Below are positions 19,687 through 37,513 of a stretch of 64,000 bases of DNA, piece by piece. The notes below the pieces were generated by a model that was not told where the DNA came from, ran no database searches, and was given only the letters and a program-made list of their open reading frames with translations. Source of the stretch: an uncultured bacterium (GTDB taxonomy: Bacteria > UBP4 > UBA4092); contig CAZXWN010000001.1 of the NCBI GenBank assembly GCA_964644695.1, forward strand, positions 244,869 through 308,868, written 5' to 3'. The position numbers and the translations under genes were made by a program. Position 1 is the stretch's first letter; the number at the start of each line of letters is the position of its first letter.

Positions 19687-19796
19687 ACGGCACTCCGTTT
19701 CTAAATGAATCCTGTACGGAGGGGAGGAAGGAAGTAATGCATTCACAAGTATGTGAGAGCACCCACCCCTTTTCTCCGAAGGGATTCGGTTTGACT

Positions 19797-19970
19797 CTTA
19801 CAGGCAGGTTTCCTGACTAAGGGGTCTTCCTAATAGCCGTGTCTTCCCATGTAGATTACACAGTGACAAGGTACGGTTTTCGTAACCCAATACAGTGGCG
19901 GGACCGTGATGGATTTTCACCATCTTCCCTTTTACCCATTTAATCGGATGATTAAATGAGCACCTGTAAG
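19797..19970 (-). ncRNA. Cobalamin (B12) riboswitch
   Basis: Minus strand: CTTACAGGTG...AAAAGGGAAGATGGTGAAAATCCATCACGGTCCCGCCACTGT...GTCACTG...GGGAAG...AGTCAGGAAACCTGCCTGTAAG, i.e. B12 box plus P1 CTTACAGG/CCTGTAAG; upstream of btuF. Confidence 0.93.
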
Positions 19971-19977
19971 ATGATAT

Positions 19978-20007
19978 ATTCTACCAAACATTGAAAAAGA
20001 CTGTCAA
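19978..20007 (-). promoter_or_regulatory. Sigma70-type promoter of the riboswitch/btu operon
   Basis: TTGACA-18 nt-TAGAAT with extended -10 TG; the predicted start falls just before riboswitch P1. Confidence 0.7.
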
Positions 20008-20971: not shown

Positions 20972-21985
20972 TTGATGACGCGTTGTTTAAAGAATTCTGT
21001 GGGGATTTGGAGCTTTGGTATTAATCCAACAGAGCATTTATTGCAGGGATATCATCCTGAATATGGTACCGAGGGAATTATAGACAGGACTAATCGTGCT
21101 GTAGAGGGATTAGGTGATTTGGTGGATGGATTTGAATATCAATATCTTTATGAGATAAATGAATCCAATGCTGAATTAATAAATAATACCCTTGGTTCCA
21201 AAGATATATATTCTATTACTGTCAATCTTTGTATGATGTCGCAATACCGAGAGGGTGACTTTACAAATCCTGACAAACGAAAGAGAACGGAAGTTATTTG
21301 TTTATCGAAAAGCGCTATTGATTTAGCAGCGCAATTTAAGTCCCAAATAGTTCTTAAATATTCCTGTCCGGTCTTTAATCCGAAGGATATAAAAGAATAT
21401 CATAAGGCATGGTGTTTACTCATTGAAGGACTTCAGGAATGTCTTGAATATACGAATCAAAAGAAATTGAATATCTGTTTAAATCATAAACAGCAATCTC
21501 TTTTTGCGGGTTGGAGTAAACAAAGCGATTTGTATGTAATTAATAAATTGAAATCGCAAAATATCGATGTTTCATTTATGAAGATTAATATGAGTTGTCC
21601 CAAATTACAGCAGCAGAAAGTATCTTTAGCGGAGTATTCTGCTTTTCTGGGGATGGAAAAATCACTGGGTCATATTCATGCCAATCCGGGATGTAATGAC
21701 TTGTATGGCAATAGCCCAGAACTAGAAAATACCGTTTTATTTGCTCATACATTACAGAATATCGGATATGGGAAAAATGGTGAAAGAATTGGATTTGATG
21801 TGTTCCCTTATTCGGGTCATCAGATTGAAATAGTGAAAAACAGTATTAAGTATTGGAATTATTGTAATGAAATCGCTTCAAAGCTGAATTTGAAAGTAAG
21901 TGGCTTGGACTCGTCAAAATCAGACAATATGGATATCTATCGTAAGATATACAAAGAAGTGGGAATAAAAAGTGGAATTATATAG
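20972..21985 (+). CDS. Xylose isomerase-like TIM-barrel protein, apparently degenerate
   Basis: NSVGIW, DGFEY, GDFTNPD...R, LGHIHAN, GFDVFPY; several acidic metal ligands appear to be missing. Confidence 0.6.
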   Translation: MMTRCLKNSVGIWSFGINPTEHLLQGYHPEYGTEGIIDRTNRAVEGLGDLVDGFEYQYLYEINESNAELINNTLGSKDIYSITVNLCMMSQYREGDFTNPDKRKRTEVICLSKSAIDLAAQFKSQIVLKYSCPVFNPKDIKEYHKAWCLLIEGLQECLEYTNQKKLNICLNHKQQSLFAGWSKQSDLYVINKLKSQNIDVSFMKINMSCPKLQQQKVSLAEYSAFLGMEKSLGHIHANPGCNDLYGNSPELENTVLFAHTLQNIGYGKNGERIGFDVFPYSGHQIEIVKNSIKYWNYCNEIASKLNLKVSGLDSSKSDNMDIYRKIYKEVGIKSGII

Positions 21986-22037: not shown

Positions 22038-23252
22038 TTAATTTAAAGCTCTGACTAATTCTCGAAGAAACGATTCAGAATCTGTTACCATCCCAATGGA
22101 TTGGGCACTGCCTCGATCCGATAATTTTGTTACAACAGCAGGATTAATATCGACACAGATGGTGTAAACTCGGGCAGGGAGGCAATTCCCCGTAGCAATT
22201 GCATGTAAAGTAGAGGCCACAATCAGGCAGATATCAACTTTCTGAGCCCAATATCTGATTTTGTCTTGTCCTACCATCGAATCCGTTATTACATCAGGTA
22301 AAGGGCCATCATCACGAATAGAACCAGTCAATACATAGGGAACACTGTTTTTAACACAGGAATACATAATGCCTCCACTGAGTATTCCTTTCTCGACTGC
22401 TTTGTGTATAGATCCTGCCTGTCGAATTGTATTAATGGCTCGTAAGTGATTACGATGTCCCCCATGAACGGGTGTACCCTTATCCAGATGGATTCCCAAT
22501 GATGTTCCGAAGAGGTTGCTCTCAATGTCATGGGTCGCAAATCCATTACCTGCTAGTAAAACCTGGATAAATCCTTTTTCAATTAGTTTGGAGACATATA
22601 CCCCAGCGCCAGTGTGAATGACTGCCGGACCTCCGACGAACATAATATTTTTGCCCTGTTTACGAGCGTTTTTGATGTTATGTGCTATCTCTGAAATGAG
22701 AAGATGTTTTGGTTTTTCAGAGGAAACGGAACTATTCATAAAACTGAACACTTCTCCATGTTGACTGCCTGACAACAGGGGAATGACTCGGACACCCTCA
22801 TGACCTACAATCACTCTGTCCCCTTTTTTTATATTAAACAGGGGCCTGCAGTAGGCCTTGAGTTTGACCGGATCAAATATTACGCCACAATCCATTTCAA
22901 TATTTTGAACGGGAATCCATTTGTTGTGATACCAAACTTGGGTTTCAAGGTTAGTCGTAGAATAAAAGTCATCGGGGAATACTCCATTCTTAGGTGCTTT
23001 TTTCCAATGTATCTCATCTTTTTCTTTTACGACGGCTCCGAGCTTTCCAATGGCTGCTAAAATGGAATCCAATGAATCCTGGTCCTTAGCTGAAACCTGA
23101 ATCTGAGTATAACTGGTGTCATCATTGGTTTTACCAAGTTCTATTTCATCCAGTTTGAAATCTCCTCCTAACTCGATTATTTTGTCCAAGGTTTTGGAAA
23201 GAGACATGGAGTTGATGATGTGTCCTTCCAAAGTGATTAATTCACTGGGCAT
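22038..23252 (-). CDS. TIGR00300 / LOR-SDH family protein (ornithine cyclodeaminase of the ArgZ C-terminal type)
   Basis: EGHIIN, PDDFYSTTN, EMDC, FSFMNSSVSSEKP, GPAVIHTG, HDIE, GSIRDDGPLP, LHAIATGN; AAGGAGG RBS before ATG 23252. Confidence 0.85.
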   Translation of the reverse strand: MPSELITLEGHIINSMSLSKTLDKIIELGGDFKLDEIELGKTNDDTSYTQIQVSAKDQDSLDSILAAIGKLGAVVKEKDEIHWKKAPKNGVFPDDFYSTTNLETQVWYHNKWIPVQNIEMDCGVIFDPVKLKAYCRPLFNIKKGDRVIVGHEGVRVIPLLSGSQHGEVFSFMNSSVSSEKPKHLLISEIAHNIKNARKQGKNIMFVGGPAVIHTGAGVYVSKLIEKGFIQVLLAGNGFATHDIESNLFGTSLGIHLDKGTPVHGGHRNHLRAINTIRQAGSIHKAVEKGILSGGIMYSCVKNSVPYVLTGSIRDDGPLPDVITDSMVGQDKIRYWAQKVDICLIVASTLHAIATGNCLPARVYTICVDINPAVVTKLSDRGSAQSIGMVTDSESFLRELVRALN

Positions 23253-23362
23253 AATTACCTCCTTTTCTATTAAGCTGTTTATTAAAAACGATGTCAATCT
23301 CTGGGTAGTATCTACAATTTAGTGAGAATTGTCAAATTGACAGGATTTGAAACAAAAAGAAA

Positions 23363-23390
23363 CATCGAACAAGATCGATCTTGTTCGATG
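23363..23390. repeat. 28-bp palindromic intergenic repeat, copy 2 (perfect palindrome)
   Basis: CATCGAACAAGAT-CG-ATCTTGTTCGATG; arms extend by AA/TT. Confidence 0.9.
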
Positions 23391-23422
23391 TTCCTTCGTT
23401 AATAAATCTATTGTATTTGTGA

Positions 23423-24478
23423 TTAAGAATTGACTTGTAATGGGAACTTAACGGGTTTACCTGTTTTCGAAGATTCATAAATAGCAAGGATAACTTCGAG
23501 GGCTTTCCGACCTTCAGAACCCGTGATGACTGGATCCCGATTTTCTCTGACAGCATCTGCTAAATCGGCAATGATGATTCCATGCCCTTGCATTGAGATG
23601 GCTGTGGGATCTGTGAGTGCCTGGTTAGTTCCATCACCAAATACAAGTTTATCTACCGGATTTCCATCAGGGCCTTTCACCACCCATTTGGAAACGCCTT
23701 CACCAGAAAGCATTATGGTTCCTTCGGAGCCATGCAGTTCTAAGCGATGGGGTACATCGGGATAAACGGAAGTGGTTCCCTCAATAATGCCAACACATCC
23801 ATTTTTGAATTTCACTGTGGCAATAGCCGTATCTTCCACTTCAATATTGTGAACCTGAGTTCGACAGACGGAATAGATTTCATCAACATCACCAGCCATC
23901 CAAAGTAACTGGTCAATCATGTGAATTCCCTGATTCATCAAGGCACCACCACCATCATATTCCCAAGTGCCGCGCCATCCTGCTGAATCGTAATAGGCCT
24001 GAGAGCGATAGTACTTTGCATAAATATCAGCCAGTGCAAGTTTTCCGATTTCGCCAGAGTCTACCGCTTTTTTTATGGATACAAAGGGCTCCTGGAATCG
24101 ACGTTGGAATATACAGGCCAATTTCACATTTGCATCTTTGCAGGCTTTGATCATGGCATCTGCCCGTTCCAGTTTTGTAGCCATGGGCTTTTCAGTTAAA
24201 ACATTTTTTCCATATTTGGCTGCTAGAATCGCCATCTCTGGATGAAGGGAAGATGGGGTACAGATAGATACGCAATCAATATCGTCTCTTTTCAACATTT
24301 CTTCCAGGTCAGTGTAATATTCACAACCGTACTTTTCTGCTTTTTCCCGGGCTTTTTCTTCGATGATGTCGCAGACGGCAATCAATTTTACTCCCTGGGT
24401 TTTAAGCACATTCTCAATGTGCCAGGGAGAAATAACGCCACAGCCAACAACAGCCCAGCCAACAATACCATTTTTCAT
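23423..24478 (-). CDS. Gfo/Idh/MocA family NAD(P)-dependent oxidoreductase
   Basis: VVGCGVI, CTPSSLH, LTEKPMA, FQRRF, GGGALMNQGIH, VEDTA. Confidence 0.9.
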   Translation of the reverse strand: MKNGIVGWAVVGCGVISPWHIENVLKTQGVKLIAVCDIIEEKAREKAEKYGCEYYTDLEEMLKRDDIDCVSICTPSSLHPEMAILAAKYGKNVLTEKPMATKLERADAMIKACKDANVKLACIFQRRFQEPFVSIKKAVDSGEIGKLALADIYAKYYRSQAYYDSAGWRGTWEYDGGGALMNQGIHMIDQLLWMAGDVDEIYSVCRTQVHNIEVEDTAIATVKFKNGCVGIIEGTTSVYPDVPHRLELHGSEGTIMLSGEGVSKWVVKGPDGNPVDKLVFGDGTNQALTDPTAISMQGHGIIIADLADAVRENRDPVITGSEGRKALEVILAIYESSKTGKPVKFPLQVNS

Positions 24479-24481
24479 TAA

Positions 24482-26029
24482 TTAATCCTCCTGATTTGGA
24501 TTATTTGTAGTAAAGAAAGAGGCTCCATCCACAGATGTACAGATTTCACATCCTGAAGGAAGGTCCTTTTTATAATAATAGTTTTTGTTAAGAACATCTA
24601 TTAGATTTTCTGCTGAATCCTCTTTTACGAGAACTAACACACATCCACCCAGACCTGCTCCTGTTAATCCTGCGCCCATTACACCCGGAACTGTTTTTGC
24701 TAAATCCACAATTAAATCCAGTTCTTCACAGCTACAACCATATCCACCGGGTTGCAAATATAACCTTGCATCTGGTTCTCCCCGCATCGCTTCAGAAGTT
24801 AATTTTACGAGTTGCTCATCTGTTACATCATACGTCCAAGGCAGTATCTTTCCATCAGGGGTATGTTGCGTGACTCTATCACCATCATGAGACAAATACA
24901 TAAGTCTACCGAATTTATCAATTTCTCCAGATTTTAAGAACTCAGCACAAACTTCACCTCTGCTGCATTCAGCTAAACCAAATAAACAAACTTTTCGAAC
25001 TTCATATCCACCTTCAGGTTCATCGTGAGAGCTGTAAATTGATTCTAAAGCTTGCTTTTCTTGCGGTAAAATTTGGGTTAGTTCTTGTCGGGTGATTCTA
25101 TGGGGTAATTCTAACAACATGCGATACAGCCAGACATCATCCCTTAATAAGAGGTCTCTTAAATGATGGACTTGTCTGGCAGTTTCAGGAAACTTTTGTT
25201 TAATTAAAAGTAAGGCTACCTGATATGTTGCTACTTTTGAGTTGAAAGTGTTTCTGGCATCTTTTGACTTTACGGCTTTAACCATGGAGTTACACATCAC
25301 AACCTTATATCCTTGTGGGAAAGGAACACGAGTATATGTAAAGGGAAAGAATTGAGCATGAAGTACGCTATCTTTTTTGGAGAAAATCATGGCGGCATGA
25401 TCACCAGCCCCCCCTCGCGTTCCAACATACCACTCACCCATACCACAAAGTTCTGCTAAATCATTATCACCCAATGAAAGACCATTGACCTGAAGTCCAC
25501 ATAATACGGTTCCAACGACTAACGATGATGATGAACTAAGTCCTCCGCCCATGGGAATTTCTGAATCTACCAATAAATTCATTCCATGCAGGGGTGCTTC
25601 AGCAAAATGATCCTGCAGTTTCAATATTCCACCCTTGATATAATTTGACCAATGACCTCTTACTAGTTCTATTGATTGAATATATTGAATCCAGTTGCCT
25701 CTCTGATCTTCGGGAAGTTCATCTGAAAGAGTAAATGTGCAGGATTCAAACTGGGGATTTGTATTTCTAAGTAAGACTTTATCATCTTGCCTTTTTTGAC
25801 AAATGAACCAGGCTTCTTTGTTGATGGCCATGTAATTCACATAACCACCCCGATGTTCGATATGAACACCTTTTAGGTTTATCCGAGCCGGGACTCTCAA
25901 AATAGATACAGGTAAATCATCGCTGAATTCCTGAATAAAAGTATTAAGCATTTTGTGAAGCCGAGAATCACTATATTTTTTAATCCACTGGCTGGGTTTC
26001 ATTTCATTCACTTGTAACATTGTATTCAA
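24482..26029 (-). CDS. Galactokinase-like GHMP sugar kinase with an altered sugar-binding motif
   Basis: PARINLKGVHIEH, IPMGGGLSSSSS, GAGDH, GAGLTGAGLGGC. Confidence 0.8.
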   Translation of the reverse strand: MNTMLQVNEMKPSQWIKKYSDSRLHKMLNTFIQEFSDDLPVSILRVPARINLKGVHIEHRGGYVNYMAINKEAWFICQKRQDDKVLLRNTNPQFESCTFTLSDELPEDQRGNWIQYIQSIELVRGHWSNYIKGGILKLQDHFAEAPLHGMNLLVDSEIPMGGGLSSSSSLVVGTVLCGLQVNGLSLGDNDLAELCGMGEWYVGTRGGAGDHAAMIFSKKDSVLHAQFFPFTYTRVPFPQGYKVVMCNSMVKAVKSKDARNTFNSKVATYQVALLLIKQKFPETARQVHHLRDLLLRDDVWLYRMLLELPHRITRQELTQILPQEKQALESIYSSHDEPEGGYEVRKVCLFGLAECSRGEVCAEFLKSGEIDKFGRLMYLSHDGDRVTQHTPDGKILPWTYDVTDEQLVKLTSEAMRGEPDARLYLQPGGYGCSCEELDLIVDLAKTVPGVMGAGLTGAGLGGCVLVLVKEDSAENLIDVLNKNYYYKKDLPSGCEICTSVDGASFFTTNNPNQED

Positions 26030-27441
26030 CCTCGAAAATATTCGTAAATTAGACTGGAAATGTATAAATCATTTTTATTAAGATTCATTAAACGACTATG
26101 TGCTAAACCCGATGGCCTCGAGTTTATTTCAATAACAACAGGAACCACTTTATTGGAAGTGTCATACTCAATAACGGTATCGACTCCAGCGGCTCCTAAT
26201 TCAAATGAACGGGCATTATTAATGGTTTTTAAGGCTAAGACTGCTGTCTGGGTAATTGTGTCAATATCTGATTGGGATATAGGATATGAATGAAATTGGC
26301 CCTCAATATTGAAGGCTAAAGAAGAAAACAACTCACAGGGTGAGACAATATCACTCCCATGACTTCTGGAGCATATCCAATTGTCGGGCTTAGAAGAAAT
26401 TAGTCCAAAACCAGATTTCGCCTCATAACATCCGTCTTTAGAAAAAACATTCACTCGCAATACAAAAGGATAGAAAACATTCTCTTTCTTGAAATAAAAG
26501 TTACCTCTTCTATGTCTTACTATCATTGAGTTGTTTTTTTCTAAACCCTGGCCGATAAATTGGGTTATTGAAGAGGCTGCCTGTTCATTTCTTTTAAAAG
26601 TTTGGATATCTATGCCTTCAGTCATCCTGTCTGGTTGTGCAATGAAATCATCATTCAATCTATTCGTGTTTAGAAAATTCCTTATGAAGATTTCACTTAT
26701 CGGGCTGGATTTATCAAAGTACATACACTCGGGTGTGGGTATGTTCGGTTTCCAAATTGAGTGGCACCAGGATTTACTATCCGGAGACTTCGATGAATCA
26801 AACTCAGGATTAACTATCTTTACAGCACTATTATGAAATGTCATCGTTAATTCACGATGGACTCTTTGTTCAGTGTCGATATCCAGATGCGTGATAAAAG
26901 CGCACTTAATAAATACGGGCTCTATAAAAGTCTCTTCCACTATAAGGCCCTTGTTATCGATACTTAAGCCTCTGTGGGTTGATGGTGTATTAGTGGAAAA
27001 ATCCAACCAGTCTTTATGTATGCCCATTATACGGATGGGCATACCCTCATTACAGGATTTCCACGAATCATTCTGCATTTGATGGATAGTGTCTTGAATT
27101 AGTGTAGCGCTGGAGTTAAATATGATTGCAAAAACAGGGTCTGTATATGCTGATTGAGGAATGGGATTTACTCGCAAGCATGGGGACTTCAATGTGACTC
27201 TCTCTTGTTGAATTGCTGATACTCTATCCAAGAAAGATTGAAGGACATTACCTCGAGATAATAAATCCCAGTCGATAATGTCGGGATACAGTGTTTTTAT
27301 TGATGAAAGAGACTGATGGAAAGTGTTAATAGGATATAGGTCCTGAAGAATCATCAGCATTACACTGATGTCTTCAGGACCTAATTTATCACTGGGAGAA
27401 TATCCCACTTCCTCACAAACTAGAGTTGTTAACTGATTCAC
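26026..27441 (-). CDS. Hypothetical protein with a C-terminal ATP-grasp-like domain
   Basis: IPTP, QPDRMTEG, LRVNV, AGVD...VIEINSRP (ExN metal motif). Confidence 0.6.
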   Translation of the reverse strand: MNQLTTLVCEEVGYSPSDKLGPEDISVMLMILQDLYPINTFHQSLSSIKTLYPDIIDWDLLSRGNVLQSFLDRVSAIQQERVTLKSPCLRVNPIPQSAYTDPVFAIIFNSSATLIQDTIHQMQNDSWKSCNEGMPIRIMGIHKDWLDFSTNTPSTHRGLSIDNKGLIVEETFIEPVFIKCAFITHLDIDTEQRVHRELTMTFHNSAVKIVNPEFDSSKSPDSKSWCHSIWKPNIPTPECMYFDKSSPISEIFIRNFLNTNRLNDDFIAQPDRMTEGIDIQTFKRNEQAASSITQFIGQGLEKNNSMIVRHRRGNFYFKKENVFYPFVLRVNVFSKDGCYEAKSGFGLISSKPDNWICSRSHGSDIVSPCELFSSLAFNIEGQFHSYPISQSDIDTITQTAVLALKTINNARSFELGAAGVDTVIEYDTSNKVVPVVIEINSRPSGLAHSRLMNLNKNDLYISSLIYEYFRG

Positions 27442-27446
27442 AGTAT

Positions 27447-30400
27447 TTATCTCTGTTGAGACTTACGATATTCTCGAGCTCTTTCACCTAATGATTTGAA
27501 TATGAGATAAACGCCTTCACCTTTTCGTTCCACTGGTAATTGATCATCGTGTGGACGCCAGAGACCCGCACCTGGATTGGGCTCAATCTTAAAGACAACT
27601 AAAGGCGATATCTGATTTCCTTTTTTATCGAAATAATCAACAGGTTGATTGTTTTGATCCTTACAGACAAAAGGTGGTCGTACTGCCTTACCTGATTTGT
27701 TGAAAAGCTGTATAACGGGTTTTCCTTTTTCAAACAGGGGGAGAATAATTTCAGACTCTTCATCATAGTAACTGACTAATTCATCATTTACATTTGTCAT
27801 GAAAACAGGCATATAATCTCCCATTTCATAGGGGATGTCTGTAATTTGAAGCTCTCGTTCAATGTTAATCGTATCCCCAAATTCAGGATGTGACTGTAAA
27901 TACTCATCAAGAATTTGACGGCCATGTTTTTTCAGGTATTGGCTTTGAGAATTAATTGAACAGAAACACGCTTTCTGCATTTCTCTCCACAATGCATCTC
28001 TATATATTGGATTTATAAACTCATCTCTATACTCATAAAGAAGTCCGCCCTGGCCTACATTAGCAACACCCTGAGTACTTAATACAGTGATGCGGTGAGT
28101 TATTCTGTAATTTTCTTTACCCTTCACAACAATAAGTCGGAAGTAAGAGAATAGGGGAGTTCTGGGTTCGTTTAATAAATTTACAGGAATACCTATTTTG
28201 ATGAATCGATTAATCATGTCGTGCAGGAAATCTTGGCTGTAGAGCTTTCTTACATGGGATTTCAAGACTTCCTGAATGACTACATTATCGACTTTTGATA
28301 TTTCATAAATGTGTCGTGAAAGAATATCAAGGTTCTCATTAATTAATGAATTGTTCTTTCTGACGGGTAGAATCATGGCGCTTCGTCCACCAGATTCTTT
28401 CTCCGATTTTACAATTAACGCATCATGATTTTTGGCCAGTTTAGTGATTTGTTTTTTTATTTCAGATATCGCTTTTTCTGTTTTCATTTTGAGCGTATCT
28501 TTTTGTAACCAGTTAGCTTGATCGGCTGTTCTTGCTGAACTTCCTTTCAACATATCTGGAAGCCGACATTTAAGGTGTGTGGCTGCTTCCCAAAGGAAAG
28601 GTTGAATTACAGGGATATCTAATGCATCAACCTTCAATCTCAGGTAATGTGTGAAATGGAAGAAAATAGCATCGGGAGGTAATGGATTTGAGAATTGAAC
28701 CATAACTAATATGTTATCTTCAGCAATTGGAATATTACGATTTAGTGTGGAATCAACTAACCCAGCATTTTTGATCTCATTAAAATCTTCTTTTGAAACA
28801 AACATGAAGCTATCATGAAGATCTAATGAAGATTGACCCTTATTTTCTTTCATTTCAGGGAAGGCTGATAACATGAGATTTATGTTATCCAGTCTCGACA
28901 ATTTGCTGCCTTGTTGTAAAGCTACTGGAACGGTTGTGTTTCCATGTGGATATATGATGGCAACATTGATACGCTCTGGTTTATTGATATAAGAAGGAGG
29001 TAAGTTGTTAATCAGGATGGGAAGAGGAATTCCCTCATGCATTAATACTGCGACATCTCTCAATCTGGCATAACTGAACCAGAATTGCTCATTGGGATTT
29101 TCTAATTTCACTCCCAATGGAGAATGGTTATTCAGAATGTCCCCAATCCATTGATTTCTATATGCCTCAGAGGTTGTCTTCAAAGGAGATTCTTCTGAAA
29201 GAATATACTGAATATGTTGATATAGCCATTGATGATGTGATACGGAAAGACTAAATAATTCTGTCCTTGAGTAATGTTTGAATGCTGTGCCTCGTTCAGT
29301 ATGGTAGTGATAAGGGAGATAATCGAATATGTGATTATTTATTGTCAGATCAAAGAAACGAGCCACTTCCAGCATTTTTTCTTCTGGAGTATCCGTGCAG
29401 AGCATTTTTTCTAATAAAAAGGCTATATCTAAAAGTTCAAATGTATAAGCAATTTCTGATAAATCGGAGTTTGTTTTAAACTGTTCTGCTGCCTTTGCTA
29501 ATACTTTCGCCAAATGTGTGTATTGTTCAGGCGTTAGTTCATATGATGATATGAGATTATTGATTGCGTCTGTTAAGTTGGTTTTAGCCGGACTATCAGA
29601 TAATTTTGAAATAATAATCTCAAGGGATTTGTAAAGATGAAACATTAAAATCCCTAATTGTGTATTATCATTTAACTCTTTAATAGATAATTTAGCGATG
29701 GCCTGCTTATAAATCAATTCGATATTATGTTCAGTATTGCAGAGATTTGAAGATTGGAAAGCGATTTTTCTCTGCTGAATACCGAGAACTCGACGAGTTG
29801 TTTTTCGCCGTTCATTTAATTTTTCTAAACGAGAAGTTTTTTCCTCAACTGCTTTTAATGAACCACCAATTCCTGTTTTAATTTCTCTATACTCATCTGA
29901 GATATTAATCTTAAAAACAGGTCTGAACAGGGAAGATATAATTTCGTTGATTTCCGATTCATTAAACTCAGGACGTGAGCCTTTTCTAGGGATTGATTTT
30001 TCGAATGACTTGCGAATGTTTACTAATTCTTCATTCGTAATTTTTCCATTTACAACATATGAACCACCTAATATCAACCATGCTCCAAAGTCAAGATCTT
30101 CTAATCTATATTCTGATACAAGTCTTCCATAGGCACGAGATATGTATCTATCAATAGGTTTCCAGACTCCATTATCCCGGGCTTTCTTTTCTTCAGTGGT
30201 TGCTTGAAGCGCTTTATCGTAAAGTTTTGCTGATGTCACAATCTTGTTTAATACAGCTCGTGATTCTGTGTGATTTTTGTTTGTAATTGAAGCGAATAAT
30301 TCGTCACAAAGGTTTTTCTCGAGTTCCATCTCTTGCCGCCACTGGTCTACCGTTTCCTGACCCAAACCGAGAGATCCATAGACTGCATTTGGTTCATATG

Positions 30401-33400
30401 CAAAGAGCTCTTTTACTTTTCTGCGAGATGAAGCATATCTGAAAGAAAATGTTCTTCTCCGACCACCTGATGTACCATCAGCAAATACTAATGCGGAATC
30501 GGGTCTGCCAAATCTCATTAATGCACAGAGTTTTGGAAAGTTATCGATTAAATCTAATAGTCCAGGATCAGGAATACCTAAATCAATAAAATCAACGCCT
30601 TGAACTGCTTCATCATAAGTTGCAAATGTTCCACGCCGATCAGTGACCAGTAAATGAATACTGGGCCCAATCTCAGATAACAATGCCGACTTAACGGAAT
30701 CTGCTAACTCTTGTATACCTGTCCAGTTCTTTAAATCTCCGCCATAGACTCTACAGTTTGCATCAATCTGTGCTTGATTTAGTCCTGCATCAATTAGTTT
30801 CTGATTTATTTGCTCTTTTAAATCTTCTAAGCCCGAACCAGGAACATAGTTTAGAATGTCAGAACCTGTACATGTACCCACAAATCGTATATCGGAAACA
30901 GTCTTGAAATCCCTAAACATATTTCTGAGGACTTCTCTACCTTCTGGATCAATATCTTTAAGTAGATTTTTTTCATAAGTCCCTGAATATATTTCTAATT
31001 TACGAGCACCGGCACTGAATCTTACATCAGTAATTGGAATCTCAAGGCCATCTTTATTTAAAGCTCCTTCTTTATAAGAGGCTGTCATCACTCCGATAAG
31101 CTGGGTGTCATCTGGAATGTTTGGATTTCTCTGACGTGATTTATTGAGAAGGTTTCGAATCAATTGGACTTTTCGGAAAGGGCCAATTCGGTTTATTTCT
31201 TCCAAGCCTTGAGCTTTTTTATTTATCCAGTTGGTAAGCCTTAATGTTTCATCCGTTTCTTTTTCTGAGGTTGTTGATATTACATTGGCTTTTGAAAATG
31301 TATTGGCCAATGCAAATGGATTGGGAAGATAGAAACAGCCGTTTTCTGTTGTAAAGTATTCCTTATATTTTTCTGTTAAATATTTCTGACATGCATCTTC
31401 CCAATCTAATATTGAGTCAAATTCAATTCGTCTTGCTAAAATCTTGCGCATATCATCTACAAGAGAAGGTTGAATTGCTGTTGGGATGTTAAAACTGGTC
31501 AGTAGTTTTGCAGAGGTATCTTTATCAACGGCCGCTAAAGTGACTGCGTAAAGAAGTGTGAATTCCTTAGGTACACAAAATCCACCATACGTTTCACCGG
31601 TGGGCAAGACCAAACGGTCTTCACGCATATTCCATTGATCTCTGAAAAACTCGAAATCACCGATTCCAACAGCATCAATATTTGCTCCGGCTGCGAGAGA
31701 AAGGTAATAAACCCCACCTCTCGTGAAAAAGTTTTCTCCTACTTTCATAAACTCTGCTAATCTTGGAGAATTTACGGCTTGTGGATTGGCATTATACAGG
31801 GAATATAATTCTTTACCACGAATTGATGCAGCTTGATCTCTTCCTCCAAGCCACTTTGGAATTCCTTGGACAGAGTAAACTTCTTCTATTCCAAGATCAA
31901 CACGGCTAGGTGTATATAAAAGATTGTATCGTTTGTAAGGACCACTTGCTTCATATCGATATAGAGGATCCATTAATAAAGAAGACAATCCCTCCGCAGC
32001 GATGACTTCTCTACGAGCAGAGATTGTTGCCATTGTATTGTCAAGCTGTCGATAAAGATCCTTGGTTTCAATTGACAGTGCTTTTGCTGTTGCCTTTGCA
32101 ACTTCAGGATATGACATTAGTAGTTTTATAACGCATTTGTTTAAATCTTGTTCTAGGGAAGCGTTGAGCCCTTCATCCCTGATTAGATTTAATAATGTTC
32201 CTTCGAGTTCAAGCTCTCTGATGACAGTATTGGCAGAATCAATAATTGTTTTTTTATACCCTTTAATTATGGCAGCAACTTTTCCTTGAAGATTAAATGC
32301 ACGGATTACGTTGAATAATGCCATTGTCTCTTGCAACCAATTTTCAACATTTACTTCCGTTTCGCCAGGGCCAAGTGTGGTGAGAACATGAATACATGGT
32401 AATGGTCTAACCTTATCAAATACATGGTTATGGTAAATGGAATTGTTTAATGGTTTCGTTTTGTGATTATTTATTTTTTTGATTAACCTACTGTCGTTTT
32501 GAGCTGTCAGCCATAATGCTTCTAGTCTGCTGCTCCCTTTTTCTATCTCATAACCAATGGTCTTAACGTGTTTTTTACTTATATCTTCGACTAATTCTGA
32601 TACCCAAACTATCCTGTTAGAAAGATTATATTTTTTTATTTTATTCACGATTTGTGAATGTGATAATTTATTCCAGTTTGATATTAATAATCTACGTGCA
32701 ACTTCAACATTCTCTATGAACATCACCTCTTCAATATTTATTGCCCAATCATCAGCATGTCTTCGATACATCTCTTCCAAAGAAGCTCTCTGTACTTGTG
32801 CCGTAATATCATAACCCCCTTCGGTTTTAGGAGTTATTTTATAGGATGCATATGCAGGAAGTGCTTCAATCCAATCATCACATTTTTGTAACCATGTATT
32901 TAAATGGGGCGTAATATATGAGTTTGGAGCAGATGTTTCTAACAGCTGTAGGATGTGTTCATCTTGTCCAAAAAAAGGATCCTTTTTTTCATTAAGCATG
33001 CCAATATTGATAGAACCTGTATTGGTTATTCGTTGGAAATATACAAGAAAAGCCGGATCATATTGGGAAGCTTTTTGTATACTCTTTTCAAGATTTGTAA
33101 CCAGCTGTCTTAATTTCAATGTAATACTAATCAATTTATTGTATTCAATAACGAATTGATCATGATTCAATCCGTGTTTAGATTCTAGGACAGAAGTTGT
33201 CTTACTCTCATAACTCTGTAGCGATTTTTTCAGCCTTGAGAGAATCCCATTAATTTCAGCTAAAGATACTTTTTCCTTTGAATTTAGGTTAATTAGAGAC
33301 TGAATATCAGAACCTAAATATGTTTCAATGGAGTAAAAATCTCTATTTTGTTTGAGAAATGCGACGATTTTTTGAATGGGAATGTGGATGCTGACTGATT

Positions 33401-33662
33401 CAATGACTTTTGCTGAAGCCATCAACATACCATCAATGTAAAAGGCTCTAGAAAAACGGCCACATATTAATCGTGTGTCATTTGCTCTGCACCAATCAGA
33501 TACAGTATGTACGTTATTAATTTCTATAGAGTTATCAAAAGTTTCAGCAATGTCTCTGTAAATTGCTTCACGAAGCGAGGCCAAGTCCGAGTATTGTTCT
33601 ATATCCTTTTTTATCTTTGAACGATCATATGGAGTATTTACTGTGATTTTTTCGTTAGGCAT
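27447..33662 (-). CDS. 2071-aa multidomain protein: NDP-sugar 6-dehydrogenase-like core plus C-terminal ATP-grasp
   Basis: YTPSRVDLG, IPKWLGG, AEFMKVGEN, GETYGGFCVPKE, SYKEG...TDVRFS (UGDH/WbpA-like); IVKSEKESGG, VVIQE, ANVGQGG, KIEPNPG (ATP-grasp-like). Confidence 0.7.
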   Translation of the reverse strand: MPNEKITVNTPYDRSKIKKDIEQYSDLASLREAIYRDIAETFDNSIEINNVHTVSDWCRANDTRLICGRFSRAFYIDGMLMASAKVIESVSIHIPIQKIVAFLKQNRDFYSIETYLGSDIQSLINLNSKEKVSLAEINGILSRLKKSLQSYESKTTSVLESKHGLNHDQFVIEYNKLISITLKLRQLVTNLEKSIQKASQYDPAFLVYFQRITNTGSINIGMLNEKKDPFFGQDEHILQLLETSAPNSYITPHLNTWLQKCDDWIEALPAYASYKITPKTEGGYDITAQVQRASLEEMYRRHADDWAINIEEVMFIENVEVARRLLISNWNKLSHSQIVNKIKKYNLSNRIVWVSELVEDISKKHVKTIGYEIEKGSSRLEALWLTAQNDSRLIKKINNHKTKPLNNSIYHNHVFDKVRPLPCIHVLTTLGPGETEVNVENWLQETMALFNVIRAFNLQGKVAAIIKGYKKTIIDSANTVIRELELEGTLLNLIRDEGLNASLEQDLNKCVIKLLMSYPEVAKATAKALSIETKDLYRQLDNTMATISARREVIAAEGLSSLLMDPLYRYEASGPYKRYNLLYTPSRVDLGIEEVYSVQGIPKWLGGRDQAASIRGKELYSLYNANPQAVNSPRLAEFMKVGENFFTRGGVYYLSLAAGANIDAVGIGDFEFFRDQWNMREDRLVLPTGETYGGFCVPKEFTLLYAVTLAAVDKDTSAKLLTSFNIPTAIQPSLVDDMRKILARRIEFDSILDWEDACQKYLTEKYKEYFTTENGCFYLPNPFALANTFSKANVISTTSEKETDETLRLTNWINKKAQGLEEINRIGPFRKVQLIRNLLNKSRQRNPNIPDDTQLIGVMTASYKEGALNKDGLEIPITDVRFSAGARKLEIYSGTYEKNLLKDIDPEGREVLRNMFRDFKTVSDIRFVGTCTGSDILNYVPGSGLEDLKEQINQKLIDAGLNQAQIDANCRVYGGDLKNWTGIQELADSVKSALLSEIGPSIHLLVTDRRGTFATYDEAVQGVDFIDLGIPDPGLLDLIDNFPKLCALMRFGRPDSALVFADGTSGGRRRTFSFRYASSRRKVKELFAYEPNAVYGSLGLGQETVDQWRQEMELEKNLCDELFASITNKNHTESRAVLNKIVTSAKLYDKALQATTEEKKARDNGVWKPIDRYISRAYGRLVSEYRLEDLDFGAWLILGGSYVVNGKITNEELVNIRKSFEKSIPRKGSRPEFNESEINEIISSLFRPVFKINISDEYREIKTGIGGSLKAVEEKTSRLEKLNERRKTTRRVLGIQQRKIAFQSSNLCNTEHNIELIYKQAIAKLSIKELNDNTQLGILMFHLYKSLEIIISKLSDSPAKTNLTDAINNLISSYELTPEQYTHLAKVLAKAAEQFKTNSDLSEIAYTFELLDIAFLLEKMLCTDTPEEKMLEVARFFDLTINNHIFDYLPYHYHTERGTAFKHYSRTELFSLSVSHHQWLYQHIQYILSEESPLKTTSEAYRNQWIGDILNNHSPLGVKLENPNEQFWFSYARLRDVAVLMHEGIPLPILINNLPPSYINKPERINVAIIYPHGNTTVPVALQQGSKLSRLDNINLMLSAFPEMKENKGQSSLDLHDSFMFVSKEDFNEIKNAGLVDSTLNRNIPIAEDNILVMVQFSNPLPPDAIFFHFTHYLRLKVDALDIPVIQPFLWEAATHLKCRLPDMLKGSSARTADQANWLQKDTLKMKTEKAISEIKKQITKLAKNHDALIVKSEKESGGRSAMILPVRKNNSLINENLDILSRHIYEISKVDNVVIQEVLKSHVRKLYSQDFLHDMINRFIKIGIPVNLLNEPRTPLFSYFRLIVVKGKENYRITHRITVLSTQGVANVGQGGLLYEYRDEFINPIYRDALWREMQKACFCSINSQSQYLKKHGRQILDEYLQSHPEFGDTINIERELQITDIPYEMGDYMPVFMTNVNDELVSYYDEESEIILPLFEKGKPVIQLFNKSGKAVRPPFVCKDQNNQPVDYFDKKGNQISPLVVFKIEPNPGAGLWRPHDDQLPVERKGEGVYLIFKSLGERAREYRKSQQR

Positions 33663-34500
33663 TTTTGAGCAGAGACTCCTTCATTTCGATATTGTTCAAA
33701 ATATTTTTTAAGGAACGAATAGCTTCTCTTGTGGGTTCTATGCCACTAAATCCGCCTTTGGAATCCCCACCTTGAAGATGTGGTTCTAATGAAATAACAT
33801 CTGTCTGTTTAAGTTTGCATAATTCTGTGATTATTTTTTCAAATTCGCAATCACCTTTTCCTGGTACAAGAAATTGATTGCTACCAAGTTTTATATCTTT
33901 TACATGTAAATAGCCAGTTAAAGGCAACATCAGTGGGGTCATTTCGTGACTAACAGCTTCTCTCATGAAATATATGTAATTCCCTGGGTCATATAGAAAG
34001 TCAAAATTTGGAGAGGAAATATGTTTATTTATAAAACGCACTTCATCAGGAGTGGATCCAAAGAGTGAACCATCTTCATTTTCTAGATGGAGTATATGCC
34101 CTCTTGCTTTTGCTGTTTCAAGAAGTATATGCAACCTGTCGACAACAGCATTTCCCCAAGAGATATGATCAGTATCTGGTAAATAATAACCGAATATTCG
34201 GATGTTGTTGGTTTGAAAATAGTCTGCATAATCAAGAATTTTTTGGAAGTTTGCGAGTGATAAATCTGGAGGATCGGTGATAGGTGTTTTACCAATTGGA
34301 GAGGATAATCCAGACACAGTAATATTATTATCATCAAGAAGTTTTTTGACTTCAGATAATTCATGAGAAGTCCAATTAACAATATTTTTGTTGTTGATAC
34401 TACGCAATTCAATATGGTTAATGTTTTCCTGGATTAAAAGATTGACTTGTTCTTGCAAATTACTTGATATCTCATCACCAATAACACTTAGTTTAAACAT
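33655..34500 (-). CDS. Sugar phosphate isomerase/epimerase (AP endonuclease family 2 TIM barrel)
   Basis: SVIGDEIS, IELRS, SPIGK, IRIF, HLENE, DPGNY, HVKD, PGKGD, SLEPH; metal ligands intact. Start placed at the ATG at 34500. Confidence 0.85.
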   Translation of the reverse strand: MFKLSVIGDEISSNLQEQVNLLIQENINHIELRSINNKNIVNWTSHELSEVKKLLDDNNITVSGLSSPIGKTPITDPPDLSLANFQKILDYADYFQTNNIRIFGYYLPDTDHISWGNAVVDRLHILLETAKARGHILHLENEDGSLFGSTPDEVRFINKHISSPNFDFLYDPGNYIYFMREAVSHEMTPLMLPLTGYLHVKDIKLGSNQFLVPGKGDCEFEKIITELCKLKQTDVISLEPHLQGGDSKGGFSGIEPTREAIRSLKNILNNIEMKESLLKNA

Positions 34501-34693
34501 AATGAACTCTTTCATTCTAATATTATAGTTACGCATATATATTTATCAATAAATAAATCTATATTCATATTATACGACTAAATATGATGAAATGTATTAA
34601 AAAATAAACATATTTGTAATTATGTTTATATATATATGATATTAAAGGGTTTAGGTTGTTTTTTTATTGCGAAATAGAATCGACTTTGTGAAT

Positions 34694-34980: not shown

Positions 34981-35604
34981 TTATTTCATCATTCCAAAGT
35001 TTTTCAGAAATTGTAATCCAATTTTTTGACTTTTTTCGGGGTGAAACTGCGTGGCTACAACATTATCTTTTGCTACAACTGTTGTAAATTCGCCTTCATA
35101 ATCAGTTATTGCTGCAATCCATTCAGGGTTCGATGGTTTTACATAGAAGGAATGATCATAATAGACGTATGATTCGTTCTGTATGTTGTCGAAGATGGGT
35201 ATATTTTTCTTGATAATTAGTTGGTTCCAACCAATATGAGGAATCTTCATTGATCCGCTAAAACGAACAACCTCACCTGGAATTACATTCATACCATCGA
35301 AAACCCCACCCTCATAACTGACGGTAAAGAGCATCTGCAAACCTAAACAAATGCCCAGGAATGGTTTTCCACTCTGAATGGCTGAGATTACTTCTCCCGT
35401 TAACTTATTTTCTTCAAGGCAACGTTTTGCATCGCAAAATGCACCCTGCCCAGGTACAACAACGTGGGTAGCATTTCTTATTGATTGCCGATTTTGAGTG
35501 ATTTCAGCGGTATAGCCAACTTTTTCAATAGCTTTTTGTACGGAACGAAGGTTACCCATTCCATAATCAATAATGACGATTCGTGGTTCCATAGGTCCTA
35601 CCAT
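34981..35604 (-). CDS. hisH: Imidazole glycerol phosphate synthase glutaminase subunit HisH
   Basis: IIDYGMGNLRSV, PGQGAF, LGICLGLQ, PHIGWN, QFHPEKS. Confidence 0.93.
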   Translation of the reverse strand: MVGPMEPRIVIIDYGMGNLRSVQKAIEKVGYTAEITQNRQSIRNATHVVVPGQGAFCDAKRCLEENKLTGEVISAIQSGKPFLGICLGLQMLFTVSYEGGVFDGMNVIPGEVVRFSGSMKIPHIGWNQLIIKKNIPIFDNIQNESYVYYDHSFYVKPSNPEWIAAITDYEGEFTTVVAKDNVVATQFHPEKSQKIGLQFLKNFGMMK

Positions 35605-36698
35605 TTTGATTTTAAATTATTAAACTTATTTTCCTTAATTGCGTAATCTAAAGTGAAAATAATAACACCCTTTGAAGGTGGTCTTAACGCTTCATTGATA
35701 GCACTGGTAAATTCTTTATTACTAAGTTCTGAAGGAATACTGCATGCCTGAATAATTGGCACGATAGGTTTATTCGTTTGGTTTGACTGATAATTTATTA
35801 TCGCGTTAATCCAGTTAATATCACGATAGCATAATTTATGATAAACCATGGGAGTAAAAACATCTACATAGGGGCTTAATGTTTTATAATTCTGTCCAAT
35901 TGTTGAATGTATTGCATTATTAAAATCATCAGGAGTCCACGGAACTCCAAAGAATCCAACCACGATAGATGGATTCTTGGATTTAATTTGCTGATACGCT
36001 TTTCTTGTGAAGGTGGTAATATTCTGACATTTCCAATCTATCCATGCTTGATTGTGAGTTTTGAGGATCCAGGCTGCCTTATCAGCAGTCTTGGTTAGGT
36101 TTGTGGGAATTTGAATTCTTGTATCTTTCTGAAATTTTGCCAGACAAATCGGACAGAAACATGTCTGGTCTAAACGGGGATTTTTTACTTCCCAATGGGT
36201 TGGATAGCGGATAAAATCCAGCCATATCCCATCAACATCATATTTATCAATTAATTCGGATATTTCATGTAATCGTTTCTCTTGTAATTTGGGTTGATTA
36301 GGGCATAGGCCACCATACCAATCATCTTTTTCTATTGGTTTGCCAGATGATGTGATGGGCCTATATTCGGGATTCATTTTCCATAATCCAGTCCCTGCAA
36401 ATAATGTTATCTCTGCATAAACATTTATTTGATTTTGTTTCAAAAGTTTTCGTAGCTCAGTATTTTTATATCCCCCAAAAACACTATTAATCTTATTTTC
36501 TTTTAGAAGCTTTATGACATCTTCATCAGTCTTGCCTGGAAATTGTAGTTGGGGAGAATCATTTAGTCCGTAAACCGATTTTACAGGGAACTGAATCCTT
36601 AAATTTGGTTTTTTCATTGTTGAACCCCATCCAATTCCAATCAAGAGATGAATTAAGACAAGAACTAGGTAGATATGTTTATTTTGTGGGAAAACCAT
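35598..36698 (-). CDS. Putative glycoside hydrolase (GHL10/DUF187-like TIM barrel)
   Basis: LCPNQP, YDVDGIWLDFIRYP, CFCPICLAKF, WIDWK, PMVYH; N-terminal hydrophobic segment. Confidence 0.65.
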   Translation of the reverse strand: MVFPQNKHIYLVLVLIHLLIGIGWGSTMKKPNLRIQFPVKSVYGLNDSPQLQFPGKTDEDVIKLLKENKINSVFGGYKNTELRKLLKQNQINVYAEITLFAGTGLWKMNPEYRPITSSGKPIEKDDWYGGLCPNQPKLQEKRLHEISELIDKYDVDGIWLDFIRYPTHWEVKNPRLDQTCFCPICLAKFQKDTRIQIPTNLTKTADKAAWILKTHNQAWIDWKCQNITTFTRKAYQQIKSKNPSIVVGFFGVPWTPDDFNNAIHSTIGQNYKTLSPYVDVFTPMVYHKLCYRDINWINAIINYQSNQTNKPIVPIIQACSIPSELSNKEFTSAINEALRPPSKGVIIFTLDYAIKENKFNNLKSKW

Positions 36699-36850: not shown

Positions 36851-37513
36851 ATGAAAAAAGAAATATTTGATAGCCCTTCAGGTAAGATCTTTCGCTTTAT
36901 TTTGGAACAGGGGGAGGTTACTATAAAAGAAATTGAAGAAGGTCTTGTCGTAACTCGGAATGCAATTCGTCCCCAACTGGATAGTTTAATTATTCAAGGT
37001 TTAATTGGCTCGAGATTGGTCAAAACTGAACGGGGAAGACCCTATAATTTATATTATGTAACAGAGATTGGAAGAGATTCGTTGCCTGACCAGTACAAGG
37101 CATTATTTAGGAGCATATGGCAGGAGATTAATTCGTTATCTGATTCAACTTTAAAGGCTCGTTTAATGGAGGTTATTAGTACCCGTATGGCTGAAGAGTA
37201 TGAGATTGAACTGCGCGGAGTATCTCCAGAAAACAGATTAAATCGATTTATTGAGTTATTAAATACAAGGGGAATTCCGACTCAAATTAAAGAAGAAGAT
37301 GACAGTTTTGAGTGGAAAGAATATGTATGTCCTTATTATCAAGTTGCGAAAGCTGATCCTGATGTTTGTCTCATGGAACTTGAAATGATGAAAAAAGTAT
37401 TAGGCAAAGAAGTGGAACGGCATGAGTGGATAATGAAAGGCTCGTCCGGGTGCAAGTTCCGTATTAATAAAGATTCAAATATTAACCCGTTTTCACAGGA
37501 GGATACTAGATAA
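36851..37513 (+). CDS. sufR: SufR-like Fe-S cluster transcriptional regulator (wHTH)
   Basis: HTH then RGRP...Y.VT..G; C-terminal CPY...VC..E...C ligands; first gene of the suf operon. Confidence 0.75.

Follow-up and report, generated by a model that had tools for sequence, protein, structure and literature searches.

What pathway is encoded by an operon that joins a multi-domain protein of 2071 amino acids (aa) with a sugar kinase and three further predicted enzymes? The question is raised by a locus in a 64,000-nucleotide (nt) stretch of DNA (hereafter the window) from an uncultured bacterium of the UBP4 lineage UBA4092 (GenBank assembly GCA_964644695.1, contig CAZXWN010000001.1, positions 244,869 to 308,868). 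An initial annotation, made from the letters and their open reading frames (ORFs), had described five tightly coupled minus-strand genes here, and the ORF list bears this out, with junctions of -8, +5, -4 and +3 nt. The 2071-aa protein is called BIG below and the 471-aa protein P471; window coordinates are as follows:

33655-34536 (-): TIM-barrel gene, 293 aa as called, overlapping the BIG start by 8 nt
27447-33662 (-): BIG gene (P0001), 2071 aa, multi-domain enzyme
26026-27441 (-): P471 gene (P0002), 471 aa, GTG start, 5 nt past the BIG stop
24482-26029 (-): kinase gene, 515 aa, overlapping the P471 stop by 4 nt
23423-24478 (-): Gfo/Idh/MocA (Gfo) gene, 351 aa, after a gap of 3 nt from the kinase stop

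Three of these genes, encoding BIG, P471 and the long kinase, form the conserved unit of the locus, and they are the split form of an old enzyme system that elsewhere exists as a single chain.

A unit found both split and fused

Homologues of BIG were retrieved by a word-indexed search (89 proteins of ~1,170-2,570 aa, 36-98% identical to it), and wherever a source names one of them, the name is "hypothetical protein". BIG loci were then compared across 12 loci from metagenome-assembled genomes (MAGs), 48 from metagenomes, and pieces of the sister genome G001; the MAG loci belong to UBP4, Omnitrophota, Latescibacterota, Elusimicrobia, Zipacnadia, four Bathyarchaeota and one unclassified bacterium. 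All loci were searched with family profiles and with the window's proteins, and were merged where the BIG DNA was at least 90% identical, giving 43 groups and, once three pieces of one genome had been joined, 41 clusters. A cluster was considered assessable for P471 when it included the 3' end of BIG and continued for 1.2 kb or more (24 clusters).

The initial annotation had treated the five genes as one set and had named a lack of kinase and ATP-grasp genes beside BIG homologues as evidence against it. For the second ATP-grasp and the kinase the association stood: in 21 of the 24 assessable clusters the gene that directly follows BIG, in the same orientation and at -427 to +469 nt, was P471, while a long kinase (E<1e-40 to that of the window) was found in 18 of all 41, mostly directly upstream of BIG or after P471, in a sample where many contigs end early. 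In two more clusters a shorter GalK-type gene was located 2.7-3.9 kb upstream. For the other two genes the association did not hold: a Gfo homologue was near BIG in only five of the 41 clusters by phmmer (six by blastp grouping), one of which (L050) carries a tight Gfo-kinase-BIG-P471 operon seen once, and an orthologous TIM barrel was restricted to the window's own family (L002/L008 and the 98% identical L020/L021), the AP_endonuc_2 genes near BIG in L015 and L057 being unrelated.

Natural fusions provided the strongest evidence that BIG, P471 and the kinase act as one system. Among the best 149 P471-family representatives, surveyed with three profiles (BIG, P471 and kinase), eight proteins joined BIG, P471 and kinase, six joined BIG and P471, and two joined P471 and kinase; the order of modules was always the same and was the gene order of the window, and chains uniting all three measured 3,000-4,700 aa. 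Moreover, of 17 long proteins scanned with Pfam, 10 showed GHMP_kinases_N after the P471 part, among them three (P0148, P0157 and P0187) that the kinase profile had missed. One fused protein, P0140 (4,332 aa), aligned with BIG 575-2062 at E 4e-35 and 22% identity. A complex prediction for P471 and the kinase scored 0.00 in two runs that had no controls, and carries no weight either way.

Some variant forms were also encountered. Two fused proteins, P0208 (7,944 aa) and P0167 (6,162 aa), have 1,200-3,400 extra N-terminal residues that matched none of the three profiles. On some contigs the BIG homologue is broken into two to four ORFs (L015 4057-11767, L056 1210-7123, L053 3-5872), a consequence of frameshifts, or of sequencing errors, in so long a gene. 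In L055 (16753-21441), a cluster with neither P471 nor a GalK-type kinase, a FGGY carbohydrate kinase gene follows BIG, and Gfo and myo-inositol-1-phosphate synthase genes lie nearby on the opposite strand; the system may be wired differently here.

Predicted modules of the unit

All five domain assignments of the initial annotation were upheld: those of Gfo, kinase and TIM barrel by Pfam, and those of BIG and P471 only through fold or profile evidence. For BIG, Pfam returned nothing at E≤0.001 and only one unrelated match at E≤10 (the UGDH models PF03721, PF00984 and PF03720, for UDP-glucose dehydrogenase, were not matched), and the best NCBIfam matches were far under cut-off and none was relevant to UGDH. 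A phmmer search of PDB sequences with BIG and P471 gave no match better than E=0.09, and even the BIG family profile reached only E=0.034 (to 3g79). One homologue (P0007) has a precomputed PF02955 assignment, and the window's own BIG matched no curated ATP-grasp model. On the other hand, an alignment of 36 members was conserved over its full length with many invariant residues, and AlphaFold models built on it as two overlapping pieces had a mean predicted local distance difference test (pLDDT) score of 87.4 (BIG 1-1200) and 86.6 (BIG 1100-2071). This full-length conservation and the confident models ruled out an artefactual giant ORF. Structure prediction, which had been proposed as a check, was done for BIG and recovered both a UGDH fold and an ATP-grasp fold:

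30363-33485 (-): predicted UGDH-fold module, BIG ~60-1100 (AlphaFold, VIA-align, hhalign)
31575-31577 (-): codon of Cys696, within the invariant Y-G-G-F-C-V-P-K-E, which aligns with UGDH Cys259 (G-G-H-C-I-P)
28974-30362 (-): all-helical region with one disordered stretch, BIG ~1101-1563 (DSSP on the model)
27471-28973 (-): predicted ATP-grasp module, BIG ~1564-2064 (Foldseek and VIA-align on the model)

In the models, BIG ~60-1100 is a complete three-domain nucleoside-diphosphate (NDP)-sugar-6-dehydrogenase (UGDH) fold that is split by ~600 inserted residues. Foldseek matches of the N-terminal model were weak (best E 2.3e-3), and the top ones were all of the UGDH family. The assignment follows from VIA-align, which covered nearly whole chains across model residues 58-1110: Z was 19-22 and ~360-430 of 418-475 residues were aligned per UGDH-family chain, the partners being CalS8, UDP-ManNAc dehydrogenase 4r16, NDP-GalNAcA dehydrogenase 3g79, GDP-mannose dehydrogenase and human UGDH. 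The Campylobacter UGDH Cj1441 (7kws) was also among the fold matches (Z 16.8). Consistent with this, the model has an N-terminal Rossmann, a central helical and a C-terminal Rossmann-like domain.

Much of the UGDH active site appears to be kept. In unrelated genomes BIG 563-705 had weak tblastn matches, and these fell within genuine UGDH genes; four of these true UGDHs were aligned and their profile was compared with BIG by hhalign, which gave a probability of 96.6% and E 5e-10 over 137 columns. The comparison paired BIG K640, N644 and C696 with UGDH K204, N208 and C259, and extension of the alignment by one column placed BIG E700 opposite UGDH D263. In UGDH, the Cys of G-G-x-C-x-P, the Lys/Asn pair and the Asp after the Cys have catalytic roles. 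All four BIG residues were kept in 36/36 close homologues and 12/12 divergent fused forms. Furthermore, Y863-K864 and D879-x-R881-x-S883 in the C-terminal domain resemble, by eye, UGDH Y322-K323 and D328-x-R330-x-S332, and this motif was likewise present in all 36 and all 12.

The C-terminal module of BIG is, again in the model, a complete three-subdomain ATP-grasp ligase fold with ~220 inserted residues. Foldseek returned 75 ATP-grasp matches at E≤1e-3 (best VanG, 5.4e-6), and VIA-align of BIG 1564-2064 (model residues 465-965) gave Z 16.9 to DcsG (277 of 298 residues, root-mean-square deviation 3.6), followed by ArgX (15.7), RimK (15.6), LysX/ArgX (15.5) and D-Ala-D-Ala ligase (Ddl, ~14); tubulin-tyrosine ligase (TTL) was also among the relatives. 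In ATP-grasp ligases the Lys before the Gly-rich loop and the E-x-N motif serve ATP and Mg binding. The corresponding residues of BIG (K1752, S-G-G-R 1757-1760 and E2027-x-N2029) were invariant in 36/36 homologues, and the Lys and S-G-(G/A)-R were kept in 12/12 divergent fusions. Thus, like RimK, LysX-ArgX, DcsG and the D-Ala-D-Ala ligases, the module has the full fold with the invariant Lys, S-G-G-R and E-x-N; unlike them, it is fused to a sugar-dehydrogenase fold, with no peptide or carrier partner evident.

P471 was more elusive at the level of the single protein. The window's P471 had no Pfam match at E≤0.01 (ATP-grasp_3 was weak at E=0.097, and NCBIfam MptN gave E=0.0028), and a word-indexed search found one copy only, 94% identical. 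A family was therefore built from the genes next downstream of BIG homologues, and a profile search of 1.84 billion representatives then returned 314 at E≤1e-3, of which 186 reached E≤1e-30. Among 66 aligned members, PF14397 ATPgrasp_ST was matched by 27, ATP-grasp_3 by 20 and ATPgrasp_YheCD by eight, and a few matched RimK, TTL or Ddl models; against the PDB, the family profile found LysX/RimK-type structures (1.4e-3) and D-Ala-D-Ala ligases (~3e-3). Because family members match ATP-grasp Pfam models and the profile finds ATP-grasp structures, P471 is assigned, as a prediction from family membership, to the ATP-grasp ligases.

These likenesses also bear on a quite different explanation, namely that the two ATP-grasp modules act, as RimK, LysX/ArgX or tubulin-tyrosine ligase do, on the carboxylate of a protein or peptide, with the sugar modules accessory. 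The structural relatives of the BIG module include just these enzymes, and the best PDB matches of the P471 profile are of the LysX/RimK type; however, ATP-grasp fold similarity says nothing on substrate, no recurrent carrier-protein or precursor-peptide gene lies beside the module, and the obligatory partners, fused in cis, are a sugar kinase and a sugar-dehydrogenase fold. We regard a protein or peptide target as highly improbable.

The kinase exceeded the Pfam cut-offs of PF00288 GHMP_kinases_N (57.6 bits), PF08544 GHMP_kinases_C (50.2) and PF10509 GalKase_gal_bdg (36.8). It stayed under that of the NCBIfam galactokinase model TIGR00131 (163.9 bits against 226.65), so equivalog identity was not reached, and its nearest solved structure was N-acetylgalactosamine kinase (2a2c, 6.5e-40), galactokinases following at ~1e-24. 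Like galactokinase and GalNAc kinase, it has both GHMP domains and the galactose-binding signature; unlike them, it is longer (515 aa, relatives 500-650 aa, against ~350-480 aa for most solved galactokinases matched) and has relatives fused behind an ATP-grasp in other organisms. A separate, ordinary GalK-like gene, 33% identical to the operon kinase, is located on contig C3 of the window's genome.

Genomic setting and lineage-specific additions

The BIG family is spread over Omnitrophota, Latescibacterota, Planctomycetota, Armatimonadota, Poribacteria, Sumerlaeota, Elusimicrobia and UBP4, and over Bathyarchaeota MAGs. One BIG contig also encodes CdvA, Snf7 and a Vps4-like AAA protein; since these genes share the contig, the family is genuinely archaeal too.

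Neighbouring genes were examined by Pfam on 87 ORFs from 20 loci, and belonged mostly to carbohydrate and sugar-acid catabolism: Amidohydro_2 (L047, L054, L057), SMP-30/gluconolactonase-like propellers (L017, L019), short-chain dehydrogenases/reductases (SDRs) just upstream of the kinase (L034, L045), aldo/keto reductase (AKR), DUF4432, FGGY kinase, an arabinose-isomerase-like gene, myo-inositol-1-phosphate synthase, glycoside hydrolases, a glucuronyl-esterase-like gene and, in three clusters, radical SAM. They included no gene for a glycosyltransferase, flippase, polymerase or polysaccharide export, and an NTP_transf_4 nucleotidyltransferase occurred in three clusters only (L014/L049, L015 and L047). 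The context of the BIG module is catabolic rather than one of envelope synthesis. Within the operon itself Pfam found neither a glycosyltransferase nor a nucleotidyltransferase among the five genes, as the initial annotation had said.

This setting bears on whether the operon makes a cell-surface glycan precursor, such as an amidated NDP-hexuronate along the lines of capsule or O-antigen pathways. Several findings point that way: P471 relatives most often match the "sugar-transfer associated ATP-grasp" model (27/66), the best PDB matches of Gfo (3q2k and 3q2i, see below) are taken to be WlbA 3-dehydrogenases, and Cj1441 is among the fold matches of BIG. In the capsule of Campylobacter jejuni, glucuronamide is formed by an ATP-dependent amidoligase acting with the UGDH Cj1441. 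The logic proposed below for the operon would be alike, with C6 oxidation followed by ATP-dependent amidation of the uronate. However, C. jejuni uses separate enzymes with a canonical NAD-binding UGDH in a capsule locus with glycosyltransferases, whereas the present system would have a cytoplasmic, catabolic context, a remodelled dehydrogenase fold, and two ligases with a kinase. A further parallel is offered by WbpA (6-dehydrogenase) and then WbpB (3-dehydrogenase), which PMC10622841 gives as sequential steps to UDP-ManNAc3NAcA. As in that pathway, UGDH-fold and Gfo/Idh/MocA enzymes stand in one operon; unlike it, the window's operon has no aminotransferase, acetyltransferase or 2-epimerase, and Gfo is confined to the few clusters noted above. 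Given also the rarity of nucleotidyltransferases, the catabolic neighbours, and the presence of the module in archaea and in widely differing cell-envelope types, a glycan precursor is very unlikely; a capsule or O-antigen locus as such was rejected, as no glycosyltransferase or export genes were seen in the scanned neighbours.

In the window's phylum five species representatives were available, all at least 95% complete, and BIG and P471 were present in G000 and the sister-genus genome G001 only. Both have all five genes in the same order, G001 being split over contigs C78 (TIM barrel and N-terminal part of BIG) and C65 (C-terminal part of BIG, P471, kinase and Gfo), with identities to the window of 40% (TIM barrel), ~60% (BIG), ~30% (P471), 64% (kinase) and 78% (Gfo). 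G002 had no BIG, P471 or TIM-barrel match and its kinase and Gfo matches were only 30-32% identical paralogues, while G003 and G004 had neither BIG nor P471 and only 25-27% TIM-barrel matches. Thus the five genes travel together in the window's family, where Gfo and the TIM barrel are lineage-level additions outside the universal core, five genomes being too few for statistics. The G001 kinase match (C65:3752-5242, L069) holds one in-frame TAG and the TIM-barrel match (C78:4650-5474) one in-frame TAA; assembly errors, the edges of the matches or gene decay could explain them.

The Gfo protein exceeded the cut-offs of PF01408, PF22725 and PF02894, with N-terminal Rossmann and C-terminal alpha/beta domains, and was below those of NCBIfam inositol 2-dehydrogenase (175 bits against 355) and archaeal UDP-GlcNAc 3-dehydrogenase (139 against 450). 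Its PDB matches were 3q2k (1.8e-59) and 3q2i (3.5e-56), which we take to be WlbA UDP-GlcNAcA 3-dehydrogenases, the next match reaching only 2.8e-30. The TIM-barrel protein is xylose-isomerase-like by PF01261 AP_endonuc_2 (79.5 bits against a cut-off of 31.1) and matched no PDB sequence; its NCBIfam match to L-ribulose-5-phosphate 3-epimerase was weak (25 bits against 317), and no subfamily was reached. An NCBIfam equivalog cut-off was reached by none of Gfo, kinase and TIM barrel.

Signals at both ends of the operon are consistent with a single transcription unit:

34522-34549 (-): promoter-like site TTGATA-16 nt-TATAAT at the head of the operon, a consensus match only, at 11 of 12 positions
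23356-23397 (-): terminator-like hairpin, 19-bp stem and T-run, directly after the last stop

The former was the best promoter-like site of the region in a consensus scan, which found 27 such sites against a mean of 49.6 in shuffled versions, i.e., fewer than expected. Its -10 box sits within the ORF called from ATG 34536, which favours ATG 34500 as the start of the TIM-barrel gene; that codon is preceded by GAAAGAG and would give a 281-aa protein, and the G001 protein begins aligning at its position. On sequence grounds, then, ATG 34500 is the more likely start. From the spacing of the genes and these consensus signals, we infer that the five genes are co-transcribed. No membrane-like segment was found in any of the five proteins, and the BIG, P471 and kinase system is presumably cytoplasmic.

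Several features of the surrounding DNA are recorded here. Upstream, a DUF4015/GHL10-like putative glycosyl hydrolase gene overlaps hisH (34981-36698, minus strand), and this pair is conserved upstream of the operon in the lineage (L008 1654-4070; L021 5188-6911), with hisF next in a UBP4 relative. A link of the operon to histidine biosynthesis through hisH was rejected, because the two are 444 nt apart and the operon's promoter-like site lies between them. Beyond, a small protein (36851-37513, plus strand) with weak matches to "methanogen output domain 1" and TFIIE-alpha, odd for a bacterium, precedes an ABC ATPase gene. Directly downstream of the terminator is a gene for a TIGR00300 nickel-pincer-nucleotide-dependent ornithine cyclodeaminase (22038-23297, minus strand; 533 bits, above cut-off), and a promoter-like site at 23335-23307 suggests that it has its own promoter. 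An aldo/keto reductase gene abutting a second, weak AP_endonuc_2-like TIM barrel (20054-21985, plus strand), 2 kb from the operon, may be a sugar-handling pair. Farther on, a cobalamin riboswitch (19786-19982, minus strand; 118 bits) stands upstream of genes for a periplasmic binding protein (18793-19746, minus strand) and a FecCD permease (17735-18793, minus strand), and the three look like an ordinary B12-regulated uptake operon.

A candidate pathway for sugar acids

The core of the system comprises four predicted catalytic modules: a GalNAc-kinase-like anomeric sugar kinase, a remodelled UGDH fold, a fused ATP-grasp and a separate ATP-grasp. Our tentative choice, which we hold as possible and somewhat short of probable, is a cytoplasmic pathway of sugar-acid activation and ligation, of the form oxidise-or-bind, then ligate. 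In such a pathway, i) the kinase would phosphorylate a hexose or N-acetylhexosamine at C1; ii) the UGDH-like module of BIG would bind that sugar as the 1-phosphate or a nucleotide derivative; iii) C6 would be handled at the carboxylate oxidation level via a covalent intermediate on Cys696; and iv) the two ATP-grasp modules would convert the carboxylate to an acyl phosphate and form two successive amide (or ester) bonds, yielding a small sugar acid in amidated or aminoacylated form. Gfo (as a 3-dehydrogenase-like sugar oxidoreductase) and the TIM barrel (as an isomerase or epimerase of the keto-sugar or sugar-phosphate type) may, in the window's lineage, tailor or feed the sugar.

A number of observations weigh against this reading. 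i) BIG lacks the GxGxxG loop: strand beta1 spans residues 64-69 and a helix runs from 72, residues 64-75 being R-L-I-C-G-R-F-S-R-A-F-Y, while true UGDHs, whose chains align from their own residue 1 at BIG model residue 64, have G-L-G-Y-V-G in this region. The loop register was derived by comparison, and whichever of the two plausible registers is taken, bulky residues stand in place of no fewer than two of the three glycines. R69, F70, R72 and A73 of the loop were invariant in 36/36 homologues, and R-x-x-R-A was kept in seven of the nine divergent fusions aligned there. ii) UGDH P150-E151-R152-V153 corresponds to BIG P585-S586-R587-V588, so that the conserved Glu of the family is replaced by Ser586, found in 36/36 close homologues and 12/12 divergent fusions. 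iii) BIG and P471 of the window pass no curated family model of Pfam or NCBIfam. iv) An hhalign comparison of P471 with the ATP-grasp half of BIG was collinear at a probability of 3.8%, too low to demonstrate a common origin of the two ligases. v) Three clusters with ample downstream DNA (L047, L055 and L057) have neither P471 nor the kinase beside BIG, and the well-flanked L016/17/39/40 and L051 carry P471 and no kinase within 10 kb. vi) No recurrent amine-supplying or product-exporting gene was found in the BIG neighbourhoods.

With the GxGxxG loop absent, NAD binding by the UGDH-like module, and hence oxidation, is no more than putative. The uronic-acid step that had been proposed for a UGDH-family enzyme is supported by the fold and by the set of Cys, Lys, Asn and acid, and is made insecure by the altered loop and the Ser in place of Glu. 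Seen beside the NDP-sugar 6-dehydrogenases (UDP-glucose dehydrogenase; 4r16, Cap5O 3ojl, 3g79, 1mfz, CalS8 4xr9), BIG is alike in having the whole three-domain fold and in keeping the Cys, Lys, Asn and Y-K...D-x-R-x-S, with Glu for the Asp after the Cys. It is unlike them in its ~600 inserted residues, its R-F-S-R-A loop and its P-S-R-V, in its fusion to a ~460-residue helical region and an ATP-grasp, and in travelling with a kinase instead of a nucleotidyltransferase.

The remodelled site could instead mean that the UGDH-like module is non-redox, either binding a sugar (phosphate or nucleotide) or acting as an acyl-S-enzyme in which Cys696 takes the acyl phosphate formed by the fused ATP-grasp as a thioester and passes it to an acceptor with no NAD(P). 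Such a role would account for the exchange of GxGxxG for an invariant Arg-rich R-x-x-R-A loop and for the uniform Ser at the position of the UGDH Glu, as well as for the ATP-grasp fused in cis; moreover Cys696 is still invariant, and must therefore have some role. On the other hand, the Lys/Asn pair, the acid after the Cys and a T-T-L-G-P-G-E motif, which resembles by eye the UGDH E-S-T-x-x-P-G-T loop, are all kept, which fits retained UGDH-type chemistry. A thioester relay is also something that ATP-grasp ligases normally work without. We therefore consider a non-redox module unlikely.

The same substitution allows the C6 chemistry to be read backwards: the system would then be a uronate reductase that depends on ATP and serves catabolism or salvage. 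A uronate-1-phosphate made by the kinase would be converted by the ATP-grasp to the C6 acyl phosphate, then to a Cys696 thioester and, by hydride, to the aldehyde and the alcohol, giving a neutral sugar-1-phosphate, by the acyl-phosphate reductase logic of ArgC, LysY and Asd. The conserved Glu of UGDH is the base for thioester hydrolysis; the title of PDB entry 3khu, among the fold matches, reads "Glu161Gln, in complex with thiohemiacetal intermediate". With an invariant Ser at this position, hydrolysis may be lost, which would suit the reverse reaction, and the catabolic neighbourhoods (Amidohydro_2, SGL lactonase-type, Gfo, SDR, AKR, FGGY and others, with no glycosyltransferases seen) agree with it. 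However, the reductase would require NAD(P)H although the glycine-rich loop is absent, it leaves the near-obligatory second ATP-grasp (21/24 clusters) without a role, and the nearest solved kinase is a GalNAc kinase and not a uronate kinase. A reductase of this kind thus appears distinctly unlikely.

A bolder proposal, which we put forward as a long shot, is that BIG couples the acyl-phosphate chemistry of its ATP-grasp to a Cys thioester on a UGDH-derived module that has neither the hydrolytic Glu nor the classical NAD loop. Such coupling might run in either direction: towards ATP-driven reduction or transfer of the uronate carboxylate (a "reverse UGDH" or acyl-S relay), or towards oxidation with phosphorolysis of the thioester and ATP synthesis by the ATP-grasp, i.e., substrate-level phosphorylation at sugar C6 in the manner of GAPDH and PGK. 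If true, sugar acids would be handled by an enzyme logic that is new, housed in one multi-module machine conserved from bacteria to archaea.

Returning to the sugar-acid activation and ligation pathway, its parts are known enzyme superfamilies, while the architecture and the pathway are undescribed. A literature search, with subscription journals and bioRxiv supplements outside its reach, found no description of the BIG family or of the operon's composition, in line with the initial annotation, which knew of no such operon. Many uncultivated phyla contain, with neither annotation nor curated model, this family of proteins exceeding 2,000 residues, in which dozens of positions are invariant. 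The tie between BIG, the second ligase and the kinase, which natural fusions confirm, defines a complete, uncharacterised pathway, gives an annotation handle for several hundred "hypothetical proteins", and marks Gfo and the TIM barrel as lineage-specific add-ons. Furthermore, the remodelled UGDH site, in which the Cys is kept and the NAD loop and the Glu are changed, may hold chemistry that is new to the UGDH family.

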